This document shows positions 1,492-10,889 of a stretch of 64,000 nucleotides of DNA, piece after piece. Made by a program: the position numbers and the translations under genes. Positions within the stretch are counted from its first letter, which is position 1. The number at the start of each line of letters is the position of its first letter. The DNA is from a virus (lineage: Duplodnaviria; Heunggongvirae; Uroviricota; Caudoviricetes), in IMG/VR virus record IMGVR_UViG_2778261631_000002; one strand, given 5' to 3'. The notes below the pieces were generated by a model. That model saw only the letters and a program-made list of their open reading frames with translations. It was not told the origin of the DNA and did not search any database.

Positions 1492-1931
1492 TTGGCTGGG
1501 GTGTATGCGTTCTTGCGTTAGCCTTAGCCGATCGCTATTTGCTAAAACGCAAGGACATCACGCATTTAGAACTTGGTGATGTGGAAATTAAACCGGGTTT
1601 CATCCGGGTGCCGTTCAAATACCGGTCTAAATTCCCGTTTTTGCGCGGCGCAACGGTCAGATATTGGATCCGCGATGTTCAGAAGCCGACGACAGTGATT
1701 GAAGGCGAACAACGTTGTCTGACGTCGGCTGAACAGGGCGAAAACAGTGAATGGTTGTACATACCCACTGAATATATGGGTAAAGGAGAGCGACTGTGGC
1801 ATTTCAACGTCATGGTTACGCATGGCGACTCGTTCATTAACCCGTTGTATCGGATTTTCCCTGTTACTCAGCAAATCCGCAGAAGTTACGTAATAAATCT
1901 CGCACAGGATGTGTCAGATGACGAAAAATAA
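1488..1931 (+). CDS. lydB: antiholin / lysis regulator
   Basis: 147-aa ORF with 4-bp start/stop overlap with the holin gene; position matches P1 lydB. Confidence 0.6.
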   Translation: MIGWGVCVLALALADRYLLKRKDITHLELGDVEIKPGFIRVPFKYRSKFPFLRGATVRYWIRDVQKPTTVIEGEQRCLTSAEQGENSEWLYIPTEYMGKGERLWHFNVMVTHGDSFINPLYRIFPVTQQIRRSYVINLAQDVSDDEK

Positions 1932-2520
1932 GTATGCAACGGTCGATTTTGACCAGGTTAATGAAAAGGGGCTGAAATCCCTTATCGCGGCGATCAATAA
2001 AACCGGTGTTACGGTAATTGAGGTTGACTCCAGCAACCGCGCAACAACGAAAGATGGCGTTAAAGTTAAAACCGCAAAGCTGGTTCTTAACGACGGACAA
2101 ATTCTTGCCATACAGGTAAACGATACTGGCGATATATCGTCTGTGAAGCTGAATGGAAAAGCTATTCCTAACGCTCAGTCGCCGGATATCAAGACGCTTG
2201 GTACCGTCATGGGGCAAGCGGCCCGCAAAAACTCCGCAAAATTCCAGAAATCACTGATCGCCAAAGCGAAACGTGTTGCCAATCCGGTAGACAAGAAACC
2301 GGCAGTAAAATCCAACTTTCAGCGCCTGCAAGAGGCAAAACAGCGGAATGCTCAGGTGGTTGCCGCTTATAAGTCCGCGCAGAATTCGGTGTCTTTCAAT
2401 CAACAGCAGATCACTGATTTGCGGGCGAAGCTGGATAAGGAGACGGGCCGACTCAATAACGAAAAGGCACGGAATGGCGAACTCAAACGTCGTCTTAAGC
2501 AACTGAAAGCAGGAAATTAA
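1909..2520 (+). CDS. hdf: homolog of a DarA fragment
   Basis: 203-aa protein with clear similarity to the downstream DarA N-terminal region (LNDGQILAIQVN / KNSAKFQK versus LSDGQTISILFH / KNSSKFQR). Confidence 0.65.
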   Translation: MCQMTKNKYATVDFDQVNEKGLKSLIAAINKTGVTVIEVDSSNRATTKDGVKVKTAKLVLNDGQILAIQVNDTGDISSVKLNGKAIPNAQSPDIKTLGTVMGQAARKNSAKFQKSLIAKAKRVANPVDKKPAVKSNFQRLQEAKQRNAQVVAAYKSAQNSVSFNQQQITDLRAKLDKETGRLNNEKARNGELKRRLKQLKAGN

Positions 2521-2521
2521 C

Positions 2522-4441
2522 ATGGAACAGTTAAATATCAATAAAGGGGTGACGATCAAGCCTGGGCTTGACGTGCTTCCCCCGCCAGTGACTGATGATG
2601 AATATCGCGCATTAATGGCCGGTGAGGACCGCTATCTGATGACGGAATCCAACACCCTGGAGGAAATCGAGGCTACGTTCTTCTATGACACGCCGATCCA
2701 CTGGTGTGCTACGGATTTACTGGAGGCGATTAGTTCTACTCGTTTGCAGTTACACCGGACCATGCAGGCATTTGTCCGGGCATTGAACCAGAAGCTGAAT
2801 GGTACCGGAATCTCTGCGGGGAGTGATAAAACGGGGGAGGTGGCCCAGAGCGGCGCGCGCGCGATCGGCGGTGCTGAAATTGGCCGGGCACGTAACGTTA
2901 ACGGGCTGCCGGTCCTGCCAGCCATTATTCCGCTCAGTGATGGTCAGACTATCAGCATTCTGTTTCATAGCCCGACAGCGGAAAACCGGATCACCAATAG
3001 CGATACGCTGGTTGCTTTCCAGTTCTTACTGAATAAAAAAGACGTTACTCACACCGTTGCTCCGATGAGTGGACGTGATATGACGCTGGCGCAGGTCACC
3101 ATGAAACTTGCCAACCTTGCAGAGAAAAACTCGTCAAAATTCCAGCGTGCGCAGAAGAAGAAAAAAGCCCTTGTTGATGAAATAACCCAACTACAGGCTG
3201 ACAGTGACCAGAAAGAGGATGCCATGAGCGACCTCGCGGATCAGGTGGCAGCGGTAGAAGGGCAGAAGGCAGATCTGGAGCAGAAAATTAACGCTGTTGC
3301 ATCGGAAGCGGATTCTCTTTATGAAGAGAATGAGCGTTTGCAGACGGAGATTGATCAGCTCAATCGCACTGGTGGGCGCGATACCATTGCTCCAGCGGGG
3401 ATGACTGGTGGGCACTCTCGCGCGCTGACGGATCGCCTTGCCAGTATCAAAAATCGTATGCATATGGACGGGGAAGCGACGCTCAGTAATGGTGCATCAA
3501 TGAAGCAATTCATTGGGGATGGCGAAGGGTATATCCAGTTAACCGATCCGGATGGCAGCGTATACATGATCAAGGCTAAATCCATACAGGGTGTGGACAT
3601 GGCAGATGCGATCGGCAAGCTGTTTAAAGCCTATAAAGCGGGTAATGTATCGGAATATCTGGTCCAACCAGAAGAACATAAACCGGAAAACGTCGAACCT
3701 GAACCAGCGGAGGATACCGGTAGCTCTTCGCCTGAACCAGAAGTCTCTGTAGGTGCATATCGATATGCCCTGCAAATGCGTCCGGCGGCCCCTGGCGCAA
3801 TACCTGAAGGTAACAAAGCGATTCTGCCGCGCCCTGATGAAGGTGACCCGTATTATGAATATGCACGCTACGGCATTGCTACTTACGATACCCCGCTTTC
3901 TGATCAGCAAATGAGTGAGTACGACCTGAAGTTATTGCCTCGCGAGGATTCTTTCGACTTCCTGGCGAAGACACTTACTAATGGTCCGTTTGGCAAATAT
4001 GCACAAAAAGCTCTGGAGCTGGCCACCAGCTCACCAGACGAGTTCCGCGTAATGCTGAAAACTCAGTTTCAAAAAACTTTCCCCAATATTGCGTTTCCGG
4101 GGGGCGCTGGCACCGAGAAAATGGTGCAGAGCATGATCAATGCATTGCAGGCCGAAGTCGGTGAGATTACTCAGCCAGAACCTGTCCCGGCACAGCCTGA
4201 TGAAACGGTTAGCGAAGCAGATGCAGAGGCTAATAAAGCCATTGAATATCTCAATAACGTGATGGATATGCAAAGCACTGACATGGCGGAGATCCGTAAC
4301 GCCCGGGGTAATGTCCGGGAAGCGATTGCAGTCCTTCAGGCTGCCGGGCGTTTTGAGGAAAACGAAGAGCTGGTTAATGGCGCTGCTCGCCACCTGGCTG
4401 ATCTGCTGGTAGCAATCCAGAAAGCGGGGGTAGCGGCATGA
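2522..4441 (+). CDS. darA: DarA, internal head protein required for defence against restriction
   Basis: 639-aa ORF, coiled-coil centre, acidic/Pro-rich segments; size and operon position match P1 DarA. Confidence 0.82.
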   Translation: MEQLNINKGVTIKPGLDVLPPPVTDDEYRALMAGEDRYLMTESNTLEEIEATFFYDTPIHWCATDLLEAISSTRLQLHRTMQAFVRALNQKLNGTGISAGSDKTGEVAQSGARAIGGAEIGRARNVNGLPVLPAIIPLSDGQTISILFHSPTAENRITNSDTLVAFQFLLNKKDVTHTVAPMSGRDMTLAQVTMKLANLAEKNSSKFQRAQKKKKALVDEITQLQADSDQKEDAMSDLADQVAAVEGQKADLEQKINAVASEADSLYEENERLQTEIDQLNRTGGRDTIAPAGMTGGHSRALTDRLASIKNRMHMDGEATLSNGASMKQFIGDGEGYIQLTDPDGSVYMIKAKSIQGVDMADAIGKLFKAYKAGNVSEYLVQPEEHKPENVEPEPAEDTGSSSPEPEVSVGAYRYALQMRPAAPGAIPEGNKAILPRPDEGDPYYEYARYGIATYDTPLSDQQMSEYDLKLLPREDSFDFLAKTLTNGPFGKYAQKALELATSSPDEFRVMLKTQFQKTFPNIAFPGGAGTEKMVQSMINALQAEVGEITQPEPVPAQPDETVSEADAEANKAIEYLNNVMDMQSTDMAEIRNARGNVREAIAVLQAAGRFEENEELVNGAARHLADLLVAIQKAGVAA

Positions 4442-4803
4442 CACTATCAGCTATTGAGTTAATGGATCTCAGCGATAAGTTGGATGCTCTGATGTCCAAA
4501 GCGGCTACCGCGAGTGGCATGGAGTTGCTGGATATCAGCGATGAAATTGACCAGATCATGCAACAGATGGGGTACGGAGCGTCCGGCGGCAGTAGTGGCG
4601 AGGAAAAACAACCTTCGGTACATGATGGTGTGCCAAAACTGGTTGCTGATTTCCTGGCTGATAAATTCGTCGATCAGAGCACAGATGCATTTATCGGTAC
4701 CTTGCAGGACTTGAGTCAATATGTTGGCACATACATCGACTTGGACCAGGTTAAACAGCACACGGCGGCATGGATAGCCGCCAACATTAAAGAGGCAGCA
4801 TAA
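4438..4803 (+). CDS. ddrA: DarA-operon accessory protein
   Basis: 121-aa ORF overlapping the darA stop by 4 bp; position only. Confidence 0.6.
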   Translation: MTLSAIELMDLSDKLDALMSKAATASGMELLDISDEIDQIMQQMGYGASGGSSGEEKQPSVHDGVPKLVADFLADKFVDQSTDAFIGTLQDLSQYVGTYIDLDQVKQHTAAWIAANIKEAA

Positions 4804-4815
4804 GGCGTAACAGGG

Positions 4816-7803
4816 ATGAGCTTAAGCGATCAGGTGGTAATGGCCACCAGCATAGAAACGCTGATCGAGCTGCTAAAGAACCTGCCCGATTATGGGCGGG
4901 TTTCGTATGTGGTGACAGCGAAGGGAGACGAGGTAAAAACAGCGTTTGATATCGTCGATGCCTCAGCTCTTTTGGTATCCAATACTCTGGATGGGAAAAT
5001 TAATCCAGACTATCCCCAGGAACTTCAGCCGCGCGACCGGACCCGCGCATCCAGCCTTCTTCAGGTCAACCAGATATCCAAGGATTTGCGTCCTGCCCAG
5101 CTTACCGATTCCGGTTTATCCAGCCATGGCGCGCCAATAATTGGTGAGGACAATGCCGTTGAGTCAGGTAATGGGCGGACCATGGGGATCATTAAAGCCT
5201 ATCAGGACGGTAATGCGGATCGGTATCGGGAGTACCTGATTGAACATGCGACCGAATTCGGCATACGGCCTGAAAAGGTTGAATCAATGACGGCTCCGGT
5301 ACTGGTGCGCCGCCGGTTAACGAAGGTTGACCGTGTTCAGTTTGCCAAGGACTCAAATATTTCTGATCTCCAGGAAATGGCAGCCAGTGAAAAGGCTTTT
5401 GTTGATGCCGACAGCATAACACCGGCGATGATGGCGTTGTTTAACCCGTCAGAAAGCGGAGATCTGCTTAGCCGCAGTAATGACGCGTTTATTCGCGGAT
5501 TCATGACGCAAGTTGGTGCCACACAGGCTGCTGGCCTTGTAACGGAAGATGGGCGACCAACACGGCAACTTGTAGACCGTATACAAAACGCGATCTTTGC
5601 CAAGGCATATAAGGATGCGCGCCTGGTAAGGATGGTTGCAGAAGAACCTGATCCGGATATGCGTAATGTTCTGACGGCGCTTAATGCGGCAGCCAATGAT
5701 TTTGTCCAGATGCAGGCTTTATCAGGAGAAGCGCACAAGCAGGCTGTGACAACTATTGTTGATGGTATTGAGACAGCGGATAGTCTCGATAAAAAGGCGC
5801 TGGCGGCATTGAAAGATGCGGTAGACCTGGTAAGGCAATCGAAGGAGTCAGGCCAACATATTACCGATGTTATTGCTCAGGGGGATATGTTCAGCGAAAC
5901 AGCCCCGGAAGTGAAAGCTCTCGCGTTGTTCATCGTCGCGAATAACCGTAGCGCGAAGCGTATGGCCACCGCCTTTAAATTGATGGCTCAACGTATCAAT
6001 GATGAGTTACAGCACCAGGGCCAGGCGCTGGGGGATATGTTTGGCGGTGGTGATGTGTCGTTACAGGATATCCTTCGCCAGGTGTCTCAGGAACTGGAAA
6101 ACGAAGGCATGCAAGGGATATCCGGCGGTCTTTTCGAGTCCGTTTCCGGCGGTAGTTACAACGGTGTTGCTCCATATACCAGCTTGCTATTACATCGGGC
6201 ATCCGGCATCAAAGACATTATTCATCTGATCAGGCTGCTTTCCCGTACAGATCCCCAGGATGAACAGCTTGTACCAGTGCTTGCGCATTTTGTTCGAATG
6301 CCTGTTGCCGACGTGAATAAATGGTGCCGATTATTCGGTATCAGCAATTCGTTACTTCGCGGATTGTTAAATCACGCATCCTCCCTTGGGCGCGACGGCT
6401 TTGATGAGATAGCGCAGGCGATAAAAAACGGAGATATGCCACCAGCTATTGACTGGTTTTCCATTCGCCCAACCAGGGTGAAAGCATTCCTTAGAGCGGC
6501 GCAATCAGCATCACCATTGGCAGAAATGGTTCAGAGGTTATCGCTCATATTCACAGACCATACCGCGTTGGGTGATCTGACTCTGGACGAGATGAAAGAA
6601 GCCTCCATTCAGTGGGCCGATCAACAAAATGAGGTTAACTCAGACTTCTTGCCAGCATTCAGGAAGGCCGTTAGTAAAGCGGATGATGCCCGTGAAATTC
6701 TGAAGGCATTTAAGGCATTGCAAAGTCGTGTTAATAAACATGTCGGTGATATCGATGGGGTAACGGCGGAAGGCCGGGATATCCTTAAAGAGCACGGCAT
6801 AACGCCAGAGTTTATTGATGAGATCAGGACTGATATGCAGCGTGAGGTCGTATCGTCCCTGCAAATCGTAGCCAGAGCGTTGGCGGATGCTAATCCGAAG
6901 AGTGCGGCCATTGTTAACCGGGTTATTGGTGATATTGAAGCATCGGAGGGCATGGGGGCGCTGAAACTCTTCCTTTCGCGAGCGTTTAATCCTAACGGCA
7001 ATATTCTCCCTGGCATTATTGGTGAGGCTAAAAAGTATGTCAGTGAAGAAGAACTTGAGCAGCTTGACCAACTACTTAAGCGATTCTCATATAACCCGCA
7101 GACACGCTGGCAAATGAATCAGCGAAGTATGGGTTCGGTCCACGAGAAAGTGTTATCTGCCATGAACAGTGCGATCGCAAACTCATCCGTATCTGAAGAA
7201 AAAGCTCTTGAGTGGGCCGACTCTTTTATCACAGAAGAAGTGGAAGAAGCCCGCGCTGGACAGAATGGTGGGATAGACCTGCGCAAGGAACTTGCTGATA
7301 TTTATCGCCTGACTGGCGGGAAAATATCGACCTTATCAAAGGTAGTTCACCACCAGGGAAGGGCATATGCAAATCTAAATGGTGTTGTTGCTGTCAATTT
7401 GAACGATGAAAATGCAAGTGCACTGTGGCACGAGCTGGGTCATCATCTTGAGTACAGTAACCCTGGTTTGTTAGAGAAAGCCCGGTCATTCCTGAAGGCC
7501 AATGTTGAAGGGGATAAGCCATCTTTCGTCAATATCGGTGGGCGTGGCAAGCCTGAATGGTGCTTCAGATCTCGATTGAGTAATATTTATATGGCGAAGG
7601 TATACCCGCCAGCCTCAGTGAGTAATTCCGGGAAAATTCGGCAGAAATCACCGACTATTTCCAAAACGTCAGCAACGGAAGTATTCTCTATGGCTCTTCA
7701 GTTGTATCATGACAAAGAGGCCGCTGCCGCATCACTGATGAATGGTGACGGATTGCTGGAACTGTTATTAGGTGTGGCAAAGGAGCTAAATAATGCAGAT
7801 TAA
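4816..7803 (+). CDS. ddrB: large DarA-operon protein with a putative zinc-metallopeptidase HExxH motif
   Basis: 995-aa ORF following ddrA; contains WHELGHH (nt 7426-7446). Name by position and size. Confidence 0.75.
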   Translation: MSLSDQVVMATSIETLIELLKNLPDYGRVSYVVTAKGDEVKTAFDIVDASALLVSNTLDGKINPDYPQELQPRDRTRASSLLQVNQISKDLRPAQLTDSGLSSHGAPIIGEDNAVESGNGRTMGIIKAYQDGNADRYREYLIEHATEFGIRPEKVESMTAPVLVRRRLTKVDRVQFAKDSNISDLQEMAASEKAFVDADSITPAMMALFNPSESGDLLSRSNDAFIRGFMTQVGATQAAGLVTEDGRPTRQLVDRIQNAIFAKAYKDARLVRMVAEEPDPDMRNVLTALNAAANDFVQMQALSGEAHKQAVTTIVDGIETADSLDKKALAALKDAVDLVRQSKESGQHITDVIAQGDMFSETAPEVKALALFIVANNRSAKRMATAFKLMAQRINDELQHQGQALGDMFGGGDVSLQDILRQVSQELENEGMQGISGGLFESVSGGSYNGVAPYTSLLLHRASGIKDIIHLIRLLSRTDPQDEQLVPVLAHFVRMPVADVNKWCRLFGISNSLLRGLLNHASSLGRDGFDEIAQAIKNGDMPPAIDWFSIRPTRVKAFLRAAQSASPLAEMVQRLSLIFTDHTALGDLTLDEMKEASIQWADQQNEVNSDFLPAFRKAVSKADDAREILKAFKALQSRVNKHVGDIDGVTAEGRDILKEHGITPEFIDEIRTDMQREVVSSLQIVARALADANPKSAAIVNRVIGDIEASEGMGALKLFLSRAFNPNGNILPGIIGEAKKYVSEEELEQLDQLLKRFSYNPQTRWQMNQRSMGSVHEKVLSAMNSAIANSSVSEEKALEWADSFITEEVEEARAGQNGGIDLRKELADIYRLTGGKISTLSKVVHHQGRAYANLNGVVAVNLNDENASALWHELGHHLEYSNPGLLEKARSFLKANVEGDKPSFVNIGGRGKPEWCFRSRLSNIYMAKVYPPASVSNSGKIRQKSPTISKTSATEVFSMALQLYHDKEAAAASLMNGDGLLELLLGVAKELNNAD

Positions 7804-8101
7804 AATCGCAGCGCCATTAGGCGGAGATGCCATTATCGAATTTGATGATAATGAAGAAGTTTCCGGGCGTTTAAGCATTATCTCCGGTGACATTACCGAG
7901 GACATGATCGCTGAAGCCATAGCTGGAGCAAATCCCAATAGCTATATGGGATTCGTTAACACCCTTGATGCTCCCGCAAGTGATGTTCTCCGAACGCTGC
8001 ATCTTTACGCTGGCTGGTTTGTTGATTGGCCAGCAGTAGATGGTGGTGATGAGGACGACGACGATGATTTTGGTGATCATATAGACCAGATCATATATTA
8101 A
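7793..8101 (+). CDS. small acidic protein with poly-Asp tail, last gene of the darA operon
   Basis: 102-aa ORF overlapping the ddrB stop; C-terminus DGGDEDDDDDFGD; followed directly by a terminator. Confidence 0.5.
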   Translation: MQIKIAAPLGGDAIIEFDDNEEVSGRLSIISGDITEDMIAEAIAGANPNSYMGFVNTLDAPASDVLRTLHLYAGWFVDWPAVDGGDEDDDDDFGDHIDQIIY

Positions 8102-8103
8102 AG

Positions 8104-8129
8104 AAATCCCGCCAATCGGCGGGATTTTT
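8104..8129. terminator. bidirectional rho-independent terminator between convergent operons
   Basis: AAATCCCGCC-AATC-GGCGGGATTT hairpin with T-run on the plus strand and A-run upstream (T-run on the minus strand). Confidence 0.65.
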
Positions 8130-8132
8130 ACC

Positions 8133-9227
8133 TCACGAGAAGCTCTTTTCTGATGTCAGCCAACAGTGCTCGTGCAAATCTCTTGGTGGTTTTTCGACAA
8201 ATGCCTCTTCAGCCACATCCTGCCAGGGGATTTGTTTAGCCCATTCAGCTATAGCGTTATGGTTTGCCGAGAATAACGGTATTGTATAGGCCTTCAGCCA
8301 GTCTAATGTGCTGGAGTTGTGTTTTTGAGCGTGATGTTTCGCATGGTGTTTGGCGATCACGATCGTAGGCACTACCCATTTACTACCGTCAGTCATTGTG
8401 AAGTGCATATTACGGGGAACAGATGACTTTTCCATCAACTCCCGAATCCCGGGAAATTTCCCCAAGATCAATCGGCGATATTCATCGCTATTGCGCCCAC
8501 CAAACTCTTTGGCTTTGAATTCAAGATATGCTTCAGAAACGAGAGGTGAATCCTCTGTGTTTAGAGTTATCGCCGTGAAAAAACCAGCAGGATTGTTTTT
8601 ACTATGGGCCAACCGGTGATGCGAATCATAAAAGTACCCTTTCTCGCGTTCCGATGGTTTCGACAGCAACAGCAGGCGCGAGTCATAATTGGTTAAATTG
8701 CCAGTTATCACTGCATGAGCGCGATCGCTGATTTCCGCCGAGTTAATAACGATGAAAAGATCGTGCGGTCCAGTAAAACCAGCCAGAGACACTTCGTTAT
8801 TCAGACAATAGGTTATATAGACGCATCCCCATATTTCACTGATATGCACCAACCCTTTGTCAGGGTGCATTCTGAAATGATTGCCAAGAAAAGGGTGTTT
8901 TTGGGTAACTCGCTCCCAATAACGGAACATATAGTCAATTATTGTTTTTCGACTATCGTTAATAGCAGGAGAAACAACCACTGTACGGGAACACGAATAC
9001 AGTATTGTTTGCAGGATGCTAATCACTGCCACAATAGAGGTTTCCCCAATACCATGTGGTGTGGTGGCAGTGACTTTGGCTCCGGTGTTCTTTATCGCGT
9101 TAATAATTTTTGCTTGATGAGGTGTTAACTCAATATCAAGCAACTCTTTCGCTGCCAGTTCCCAATTGTCTTTATACTGTTCTATCAGTGCTAACCAGGC
9201 AGGTTCATTCTGTATACGATTAGTCAC
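8133..9227 (-). CDS. PacB-like protein: terminase large-subunit ATPase-domain paralog with degenerate Walker motifs and no nuclease domain
   Basis: 364-aa protein sharing [11 protein letters not shown] and flanking blocks with PacB (32101..33585), but Walker A is PHGIGET (PacB: SGHGTGKS) and the Walker B DE is replaced (FIVINSAE versus YIIDEASG). Confidence 0.6.
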   Translation of the reverse strand: MTNRIQNEPAWLALIEQYKDNWELAAKELLDIELTPHQAKIINAIKNTGAKVTATTPHGIGETSIVAVISILQTILYSCSRTVVVSPAINDSRKTIIDYMFRYWERVTQKHPFLGNHFRMHPDKGLVHISEIWGCVYITYCLNNEVSLAGFTGPHDLFIVINSAEISDRAHAVITGNLTNYDSRLLLLSKPSEREKGYFYDSHHRLAHSKNNPAGFFTAITLNTEDSPLVSEAYLEFKAKEFGGRNSDEYRRLILGKFPGIRELMEKSSVPRNMHFTMTDGSKWVVPTIVIAKHHAKHHAQKHNSSTLDWLKAYTIPLFSANHNAIAEWAKQIPWQDVAEEAFVEKPPRDLHEHCWLTSEKSFS

Positions 9228-10008
9228 TTTCCACCTCTTCCGTGGTGTTTTCTTGCAGTTCTGTTAATGCAGCACGACACAGGTTCCGGGCCTTGGCTAT
9301 AGCCACACTTTTGACTTCATCTGTCATCGTGCAGGTAATGTACTGATCGAGTTCTTCAGCGCGGATGATGCTTTTGCCAATCAGAAACTGTATTTGCCAG
9401 AGCAGATCGGCATCCATAATCAGAATTTCTGCCGGGCCTTCAGGGCCAGCCGGGAAGGAAACATAAGACTGTTTGCCAAGGCCGATAACTCGACAACTTG
9501 CTTCAAGAATTGCGCGCTTGAGGTCTGACTTTGTAACTGAAACAGGTTGATTTTCACCTGCGATTACGCCGTTGACATGGATGTGGAAGGGCATGTAGCT
9601 TGAAATTCGCTCTACTTTCCATACGCCAGCAAGCGATCCTTCATGCAGCACAATGGGGGTAACAGCGAGTTTCATCTCACCATATAACTGCTGGCAGATA
9701 GCTGGATTGCTGAATACATCCAAAGGTTCACACTCAAACAGCGGTGCAATCTGCATGAGGTCCATCATGGTCATACCTGGGGTACGAGCGGTAATGAATC
9801 TGCGCATGCCAGTATCCATTGTTCGCCAGATAGCTACACCATGCTTTTTGCTCACTTCTTCAGTAAAGCCAAGCTGGCACATGATGGTTTTTTCGATAGC
9901 CAGATCAGAGATAGAAACCTTTTCGCCAGGTACACCATCATTATTGATGGTCACTTCGACACTCTGGCCATTACGCAGGCGGTATTGAATTGCTTTAGTA
10001 TTTTCCAC
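9220..10008 (-). CDS. hypothetical protein (early operon with ssb)
   Basis: 262-aa ORF, start overlaps the upstream stop, same strand as ssb. Confidence 0.55.
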   Translation of the reverse strand: MENTKAIQYRLRNGQSVEVTINNDGVPGEKVSISDLAIEKTIMCQLGFTEEVSKKHGVAIWRTMDTGMRRFITARTPGMTMMDLMQIAPLFECEPLDVFSNPAICQQLYGEMKLAVTPIVLHEGSLAGVWKVERISSYMPFHIHVNGVIAGENQPVSVTKSDLKRAILEASCRVIGLGKQSYVSFPAGPEGPAEILIMDADLLWQIQFLIGKSIIRAEELDQYITCTMTDEVKSVAIAKARNLCRAALTELQENTTEEVESD

Positions 10009-10014
10009 GTTAAA

Positions 10015-10692
10015 TCACTCCACTACAAACCAGTCACATGCCAGTAAGTCGCATACAGAAGGCACCCACGGAACAACTACACCTTGTGCATTTTTTAAGG
10101 CGAAATAAGCACCATACGGAACGAGGTCGCCGGGGAAATATCCCTTAATGGCTTCCATTCGTGCCGGGTACTGTCCTTCAGGAACCAGCCAGCAGAATTG
10201 GTTTTCGCCGTTCCACCCGCGTCGAGCAACTTTCTTGCCATCCTTCAGCCACATCAGCGCGTCAGAAAAGTCGGCTGCTTCAAGGTCGATTTCTTCTTGT
10301 GTGGTAATGATGCCACTGGCAGCAATAGTTACGTCCCTGGCTGTAATGAATGTCACCCCATTGTGACCTTCAATACTGAGCGATACCCCATTTTCGAAGA
10401 AGTCGTTAGTCCGACTAAAGCCTTCTTCAAATGTTTTTTCTGGTGAATAGGACAGAGATCCGTCCTCATAAGCGACCAGATATCCGCCAATTTCTGGTCG
10501 GTGTTTTTGCAAAAACATTTTATCAACATGGACTTTTACCCCTTCTGGCTCAACGACTTCGATGTTGCAAAAAAGGACCACATCCATTAGGGCGATAATT
10601 TCGATATCTTTGATTTTTGAGGCGCGAACTGTTTTATGGCTTTTGTATTTTGGAAGTGCCGTCAAAAGCTCTTTCGTTGTCATGTTATTCAT
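10015..10692 (-). CDS. hypothetical protein with DUF2829-like C-terminal region
   Basis: Likely start at MNNMTTKELL (the listed ORF extends to 10812); C-terminal DALMWLKDGKKVARRGWNG resembles the phage DUF2829 pattern, from memory. Confidence 0.5.
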   Translation of the reverse strand: MNNMTTKELLTALPKYKSHKTVRASKIKDIEIIALMDVVLFCNIEVVEPEGVKVHVDKMFLQKHRPEIGGYLVAYEDGSLSYSPEKTFEEGFSRTNDFFENGVSLSIEGHNGVTFITARDVTIAASGIITTQEEIDLEAADFSDALMWLKDGKKVARRGWNGENQFCWLVPEGQYPARMEAIKGYFPGDLVPYGAYFALKNAQGVVVPWVPSVCDLLACDWFVVE

Positions 10693-10889
10693 AGTCTTTC
10701 CTCTGCTTAAAACCTGATGTATTGCGCCTTCAGGTGGGTCAGGAATGTTTTCCCACCAGCGAAAGCAATATCTCGGGGTGTTCTTTTCGTGAAAAGCGCG
10801 TGCCATTGCCAACTTTGGCGTTTTTTAGCGAGTTCGTGCTTTTGTTGGCGTTTGGACCACCGCTTTTCTTTCAGTCGTTTTTTACACAT

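Follow-up and report, generated by a model that had tools for sequence, protein, structure and literature searches.

The C-terminal metallopeptidase module of DdrB in a P1-like phage: conservation, predicted zincin fold and candidate roles

Described metallopeptidases and the ddrB locus

The closest described systems are the zincin-like metallopeptidases (MPTases) of polyvalent proteins. [quoted passage not shown] The MPTases of that study have in common with DdrB an HExxH motif on the first C-terminal helix with a glutamate on the second, an acidic residue at the third position beyond the motif (+3) and a setting in virion-delivered multi-domain proteins. The DdrB clade differs from the widespread phage-type MPTase clade (PMC5512222) in having an invariant arginine (R849) rather than histidine at a strand position, and glutamate rather than aspartate at +3; it is matched by no Pfam model.

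ArdC of plasmid R388 (PDB 6SNA) resembles DdrB in that it serves a mobile element in anti-restriction and has an HExxH motif and a glutamate-helix ligand (H201, H205 and E229), and a neighbouring glutamate (E228) orients a histidine ligand, a residue to be compared with E879 of DdrB. It is the only polyvalent-protein relative whose structure has been studied; its anti-restriction activity does not require the protease site, for which the search for a substrate was negative. The M34/ATLF-like peptidases (PPEP-2, PPEP-3 and anthrax lethal factor) are only 12-15% identical to DdrB in sequence and act as secreted toxins or effectors, in contrast to DdrB, which resides inside the capsid. MtfA (Mlc titration factor A, peptidase M90, PDB 3DL1) has 12% identity to DdrB and is a host regulator from an unrelated context. 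P1 Pro, a prohead protease like T4 gp21, works on head-internal proteins during capsid maturation and is credited in the literature with the cleavages of gp23 and DarA, but a separate gene encodes it, with the T4 prohead core protease as its match, and it is not a zincin.

The metallopeptidase domain of DdrB is already known, from the 2004 annotation of the P1 genome and the formal description of 2017. The P1 reference (RefSeq) record has ddrB as a 'possible metallopeptidase', the P7 record has the orthologue as prt, a 'putative protease', phage JL22 is annotated with a 'putative metallopeptidase', and Lenart 2013 (PMC3650047) treated the ddrB family as suspected zincins whose formal description was then pending. 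These records answer an earlier note on the present sequence, which had picked out the HExxH motif of DdrB and was uncertain whether it had been described. We found no demonstration in the literature of enzymatic activity, metal binding or a cleavage site for DdrB or any other member of the family.

The window, i.e. the whole stretch of 64,000 nucleotides analysed here (IMGVR_UViG_2778261631_000002), belongs to a P1-like phage, as positions 4000-9000 align at 98-99% nucleotide identity with P1, P7, SJ46, RCS47 and relatives. Its DdrB is the orthologue of the P1 protein, given this level of identity to P1, P7 and SJ46 and the matching gene order: the late operon runs hdf-darA-ddrA-ddrB-hxr, identical to the P1 reference record. 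With a ddrB-ParB domain and a peptidase module within one ORF, the protein is polyvalent, the term of Iyer 2017 for phage or conjugative-element polypeptides that carry at least two effector-type domains and are delivered along with the DNA. The genes and domains are as follows.

1909-2520, plus strand: hdf (ORF list; P1 annotation agrees)
2522-4441, plus strand: darA (ORF list; P1 annotation agrees)
4438-4803, plus strand: ddrA, ending directly upstream of ddrB (ORF list; P1 annotation agrees)
4816..7803, plus strand: ddrB, 995 aa plus stop (ORF translation; ddrB in the annotations of P1, P7 and other P1-like phages)
4921..5316, plus strand: N-terminal DdrB-type ParB domain, aa 36-167 (Pfam PF18763, E 1.2e-39; high pLDDT in the full-length model)
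7018..7800, plus strand: predicted C-terminal peptidase module, aa ~735-995 (helical N-subdomain, then zincin core from ~aa 835)
7793-8101: hxr, the ORF after ddrB (position as in the P1 reference record)

Published P1 proteomics located DdrB in the virion (39 peptides, 59.5% coverage), and the protein enters the head later than Hdf, DarA and DdrA. The gene is reported to be non-essential, and the sole function assigned to DdrB in the literature is that it 'aids DarB addition to capsid'.

Motif, conservation and predicted fold of the C-terminal module

The 995-aa DdrB does contain an HExxH motif, HELGH at aa 872-876, within the segment WHELGHHLEY (aa 871-880, nt 7426-7455). The range of 7426-7446 previously given for this segment starts correctly and covers WHELGHH only, ending nine bases short of 7455. 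From the length and composition of DdrB, 0.024 HExxH motifs would be expected, and 2.5% of shuffled sequences contained at least one, so by chance statistics the motif on its own is suggestive and not decisive. One other HExxH was present in the long ORFs of the window, an HEGGH in a 1096-aa autotransporter (Pfam beta-domain at residues 815-1074), and it looks like a chance occurrence.

We searched exhaustively with HMMER, using DdrB residues 751-995 as the query and a threshold of E <= 1e-3. This gave a diverse C-terminal family of 393 cluster representatives, 34 of them at E <= 1e-10; nearly all matches from a word-indexed homologue search were near-identical E. coli fragments. Architectures among the 393 representatives are of the virion/polyvalent type, with ddrB-ParB, Mu F, InPase and LPD3 domains, and the databases also hold deletion variants that lack the motif (P0014). 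H872, E873 and H876 were identical in all 158 homologous segments aligned over the motif, and because it is conserved in this way across homologues the HExxH is not fortuitous. Two MAFFT alignments were made, A1 from 55 full-length proteins and A2 from 39 domain segments with 21-53% identity to DdrB. R849, H872, E873, H876, Y925 and E955 were invariant in both, and G835, E879, E914, Y930, S958 and G986 were conserved at 90% or more in both. The conservation across homologues that the earlier note asked about therefore extends, for the motif, down to 21% identity, and the 43 viral loci outside the P1-like group all carry HExxHxx[E/D] (43/43). The principal conserved positions are the following.

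7360..7362, plus strand: R849, in an RAxA motif in the predicted beta-sheet region ahead of the active-site helix (invariant in A1 and A2)
7429..7443, plus strand: HELGH, aa 872-876, with H872, E873 and H876 (158/158) on the predicted active-site helix
7450..7452, plus strand: E879 at motif +3, i.e. HExxHxxE (Glu in 158/159, Asp in one)
7555..7557, plus strand: E914 (+38), on a predicted beta-strand (135/142; at least 90% in A1 and A2)
7588..7605, plus strand: Y925 to Y930, consensus PYVGKVY, before the predicted glutamate helix (Y925 invariant, Y930 at least 90%)
7675..7689, plus strand: TEVFS, aa 954-958, with E955 (+79) as the proposed third zinc ligand (E955 invariant, S958 at least 90%)

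From the 39-sequence alignment, AlphaFold2 predicted a domain model for residues 751-995, with a pLDDT of 91 and a pTM of 0.88. In the model a helical N-subdomain is followed by a helix (822-832) and two strands (842-845 and 857-860), and then by the active-site helix 868-881 (domain residues 118-131), which bears HELGH and E879. Beyond it come a helix (883-896), short strands, one of them with E914, a low-confidence insertion specific to P1, and a helix (956-965) that begins right after E955. The HExxH is thus placed on an alpha-helix, as in zincins and gluzincins, and a mixed beta-sheet with an N-terminal helix behind it, followed by the active-site helix, is the order of a zincin core. The structural relatives of the model were PPEP-3 (score 8.1), PPEP-2 (7.6), the lethal-factor-like domain of Certhrax (7.2), MtfA (6.9), anthrax EF/LF (6.2-6.9) and the M32, M1 and M30 peptidases (5.1-5.9), which puts the ATLF/M34-like peptidases and MtfA nearest to it among solved structures.

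Of the two checks that the earlier note suggested for a metalloprotease fold, HMM searches or structure prediction, it was the latter that gave a result, in the form of the AlphaFold2 zincin fold. Pfam matched no family to the C-terminal 245 aa at E <= 10, NCBIfam matched none to DdrB at E <= 1, and across Pfam, NCBIfam and PHROGs the sole annotated match was the N-terminal ParB domain; those PHROG families that extend over the C-terminus carry no annotation. Pfam searches with 39 diverse members returned sub-threshold matches only (Reprolysin_5 at 0.0035, ATLF at 0.035 in 1/39, M91, M60 and Zincin_1). The PDB, searched by sequence and by profile, gave only non-significant matches centred on the HExxH (a botulinum-like toxin, ADAM8 and FtsH), a Foldseek search of the PDB returned nothing significant, and a BFVD search returned uncharacterised phage homologues only. 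DdrB thus matches no curated peptidase family of Pfam or NCBIfam above threshold, and this holds also for the models of the polyvalent-protein MPTases and of ATLF.

The conserved residues can be assigned putative roles in a catalytic site. In M34-type enzymes such as lethal factor, a tyrosine stabilises the transition state, and either Y930 or Y925 of DdrB may act in the same way; one of these tyrosines, together with R849, would also line the substrate cleft, R849 with a putative role in binding of the substrate or the active site. [quoted passage not shown] The gluzincin glutamate-helix motif quoted in the ArdC structure paper (PMC7213743) is (E,H)xx(A,F,T,S,G), and E955-V-F-S958, which is invariant or near-invariant and stands at the start of helix 956-965, fits it. 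Because of this match, we propose that E955 is the third ligand; E879 would then belong to the second shell and, by analogy with E228 of ArdC and the +3 Asp of Iyer 2017, would orient a histidine ligand. E914 is disfavoured as the third ligand, as the model places it on a strand. The earlier note had pointed to candidate glutamates about 20 residues downstream of the motif; E887 and E898 are indeed present there but are not conserved (E898 in only 52/153, which also speaks against it as a ligand), and the conserved glutamates are E879, E914 and E955.

Since the domain is conserved, its zincin fold is predicted with confidence and its catalytic-type residues are invariant, a peptidase is the best reading, and the last ~260 residues of DdrB probably form a genuine zincin (gluzincin) metallopeptidase module that is conserved by selection, as already described. 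The suggestion that DdrB is a protease gains support from the same sequence comparisons and fold prediction.

Pairing of the peptidase with DarA_N genes

We scanned IMG/VR with a pattern derived from a closer alignment of 10 sequences, which samples one subgroup of the family with some redundancy, and obtained 80 loci, 43 of them not P1-like. In 40 of these 43 a DarA_N ORF lies upstream of the peptidase ORF on the same strand, and in 19 the two directly abut. Pfam confirmed DarA_N in all nine of the upstream ORFs tested (9/9), which are mostly InPase-DarA_N multi-domain proteins. Four distant metagenomic homologues were also placed on their contigs, and three lie directly downstream of a Pfam DarA_N gene. 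The fourth (P0035) is a fusion, with an Hdf-like DarA_N domain at residues 1-143 (hhalign probability 98.7%, E 2.5e-16) and the peptidase at 538-789.

None of the 43 peptidase ORFs at the non-P1 loci has a ParB domain (0/43), and at one locus (L037) the ParB domain is carried by the DarA_N protein instead. The peptidase, rather than ParB, is therefore the conserved part of DdrB-like proteins. The adjacency to DarA_N genes can be explained by co-packaging rather than by a relation of enzyme and substrate; with this pairing, a role in processing Dar cargo keeps a low probability.

Candidate substrates and roles in the Dar cassette

The role best supported for the peptidase is to process packaged cargo, the leading candidate substrate being DdrB. 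This reading follows from the virion location of DdrB, from the crediting of the gp23 and DarA cuts to Pro and from the restriction of Dar protection to DNA of the same virion. The module would most likely act on the packaged cargo of the P1 Dar anti-restriction cassette, where it would cut DdrB itself at a linker between domains, as proposed in Iyer 2017, and possibly also neighbouring multi-domain Dar cargo. Self-processing of DdrB specifically is a tenable but tentative proposal.

A passage of Iyer 2017 (PMC5512222) cites a 76-kDa processed form of DdrB and proposes autoproteolysis by the MPTase before packaging. The AlphaFold2 model of full-length DdrB (pLDDT 78, pTM 0.48) contains two low-confidence linkers as candidate processing sites.

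5713..5781, plus strand: linker aa 300-322, candidate processing site (pLDDT <50 in the full-length model)
6997..7014, plus strand: linker aa 728-733, second candidate site, just before the peptidase module (pLDDT <50)

The computed masses are 75.9 kDa for a C-terminal fragment of residues 301-995 and 79.4 kDa for an N-terminal fragment of residues 1-727. The size of 76 kDa would thus fit either end of DdrB, and the size does not tell which end is retained. The 59.5% peptide coverage from virions is high if only ~70% of the chain is present, a point against such processing, and may mean that virions contain most of DdrB. The dispensable protease site of ArdC likewise counts against a processing role.

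Several other readings of the module have to be weighed against processing of packaged cargo. That the HExxH is a chance occurrence without functional meaning recalls its appearance in 2.5% of DdrB shuffles and the apparently fortuitous HEGGH of the autotransporter, but its conservation in 158/158 segments, the co-conserved partner residues and the predicted zincin fold exclude this reading for practical purposes. A purely structural adaptor, with DarB and Ulx brought into the head by the domain and its catalytic site left unused, would agree with the only function assigned to DdrB and with the database variants from which the motif is deleted. We regard it as quite improbable, as a full set of catalytic-type residues that stays invariant down to 21% identity and across domain architectures would not be expected of a disused site. 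An effector protease, injected so as to attack restriction enzymes or other proteins of the host once ejected, would suit the published findings that Dar proteins leave the virion together with the DNA and act against type I restriction, and also the presence of secreted toxin and effector peptidases (lethal factor and the PPEPs) among the closest structural relatives; host-directed proteolysis is among the possible roles in Iyer 2017 (PMC5512222). However, Dar proteins protect only the DNA of their own virion and do not rescue a co-infecting Dar-minus phage, which argues against a diffusible enzyme that destroys restriction systems, and ArdC left its candidate target undegraded and could dispense with its protease site. 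This reading is likewise a doubtful one.

The role put forward in the earlier note, proteolytic maturation of Dar and head proteins, amounts to DdrB acting in trans on other proteins, e.g. by taking off the N-terminal ~9 kDa of DarA, trimming the targeting sequence of DarB or cutting multi-domain DarA_N cargo between its domains. Several observations are consistent with such a role: the DarA_N neighbours at 40/43 non-P1 loci, 19 of them abutting; the natural fusion of an Hdf-like domain to the peptidase; upstream proteins that are often multi-domain (InPase-DarA_N-...), the kind of substrate expected by Iyer 2017 (PMC5512222); the reported cut in DarA, whose residues 1-69 are missing from the cryo-EM density, just ahead of the DarA_N match at ~residue 69; and the published requirement of DdrB for loading of DarB. 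Against it, the gp23 and DarA cleavages are attributed to Pro, ddrB is non-essential, DdrB gets into the head after DarA, co-packaging accounts equally well for the gene adjacency, and the proposal in the literature is self-cleavage. Maturation of other Dar or head proteins is not borne out by the current literature, and we consider a maturation protease acting in trans unlikely.

A broader form of the same idea is that the DdrB-type peptidase is the conserved core of a widespread Dar cassette, running from a small Hdf-like gene through a DarA_N polyvalent protein and the peptidase protein to, in many cases, a giant protein. The peptidase would then be a second in-capsid protease, separate from Pro, that cuts DarA_N multi-domain cargo, which in P1 might be DarA or DarB, so that anti-defence proteins can be loaded or released; at present this is a rather improbable extension.

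Processing of packaged cargo, beginning with DdrB itself, thus remains the reading to which we hold. Our additions to the earlier descriptions are modest, i.e. a fold model with its nearest solved relatives, a list of residues (H872, E873, H876, E879, E955, Y925/Y930 and R849), the identification of the peptidase as the conserved part of DdrB-like proteins, its near-constant adjacency to DarA_N, and the caution that the 76-kDa species could derive from either end. An active peptidase would mean that P1 and many other phages package a dedicated zinc protease among their anti-defence proteins, with consequences for the way in which large multi-domain cargo enters the head and is released in the host.

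The region 3' of hxr

Comparison of the window with P1 showed that the similarity stops at about 8102, directly past hxr, the gene that follows ddrB, and isaB and IS1 of P1 are not present at 8102-10008. This site is occupied by two ORFs without a Pfam match, whereas P7 and JL22 have a porin gene there. Next to these two ORFs is one with a Tad2-like (Thoeris anti-defence 2) domain, placed between hxr and ssb, where P1 has isaB, IS1 and isaA.

ORFs of the window outside the peptidase region
5337-5738, -: 133-aa ORF, antisense, within ddrB; counterpart of P1 iddB
8133-9227, -: 364-aa ORF, no Pfam match
9220-10008, -: 262-aa ORF, no Pfam match
10015-10812, -: 265-aa ORF, Tad2-like domain at the C-terminus (Pfam PF11195, E 5e-23)
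23271-26561, -: 1096-aa autotransporter on the P1-like element, with Autotransporter beta-domain and autochaperone domain

The iddB gene is annotated in P1 as 'unknown protein function'. The autotransporter contains HEGGH, the sole further HExxH among the long ORFs of the window, and this motif is apparently fortuitous.

Variants and domain partners of the DdrB-type peptidase

No model in Pfam-A or NCBIfam fits the peptidase clade (window 7066-7800 (+) and its homologues) despite 393 cluster representatives; the DdrB-type peptidase family is without a curated profile. Two DdrB variants among the database proteins carry internal deletions, P0014 (699 aa) of aa 592-877, including the HExxH motif, and P0013 (537 aa) of aa 198-654. 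They may be true deletion derivatives in P1-like prophages, or else assembly artefacts.

Natural fusion on the locus L009
4047-6413: P0035, 788 aa; at aa 1-143 a DarA_N domain of the Hdf-like kind (98.7% probability in hhalign), at aa 538-789 a peptidase domain of the DdrB type

The Hdf-like domain of P0035 was missed by the DarA_N model of Pfam. In the loci L037, L011, L015, L017, L022, L025 and L031, InPase-DarA_N multi-domain proteins are encoded upstream of the peptidase gene. The upstream protein of L037 (3494-7249) additionally contains LPD3 and the ddrB-type ParB domain; ParB thus shifts, from lineage to lineage, between the two adjoining cassette genes.
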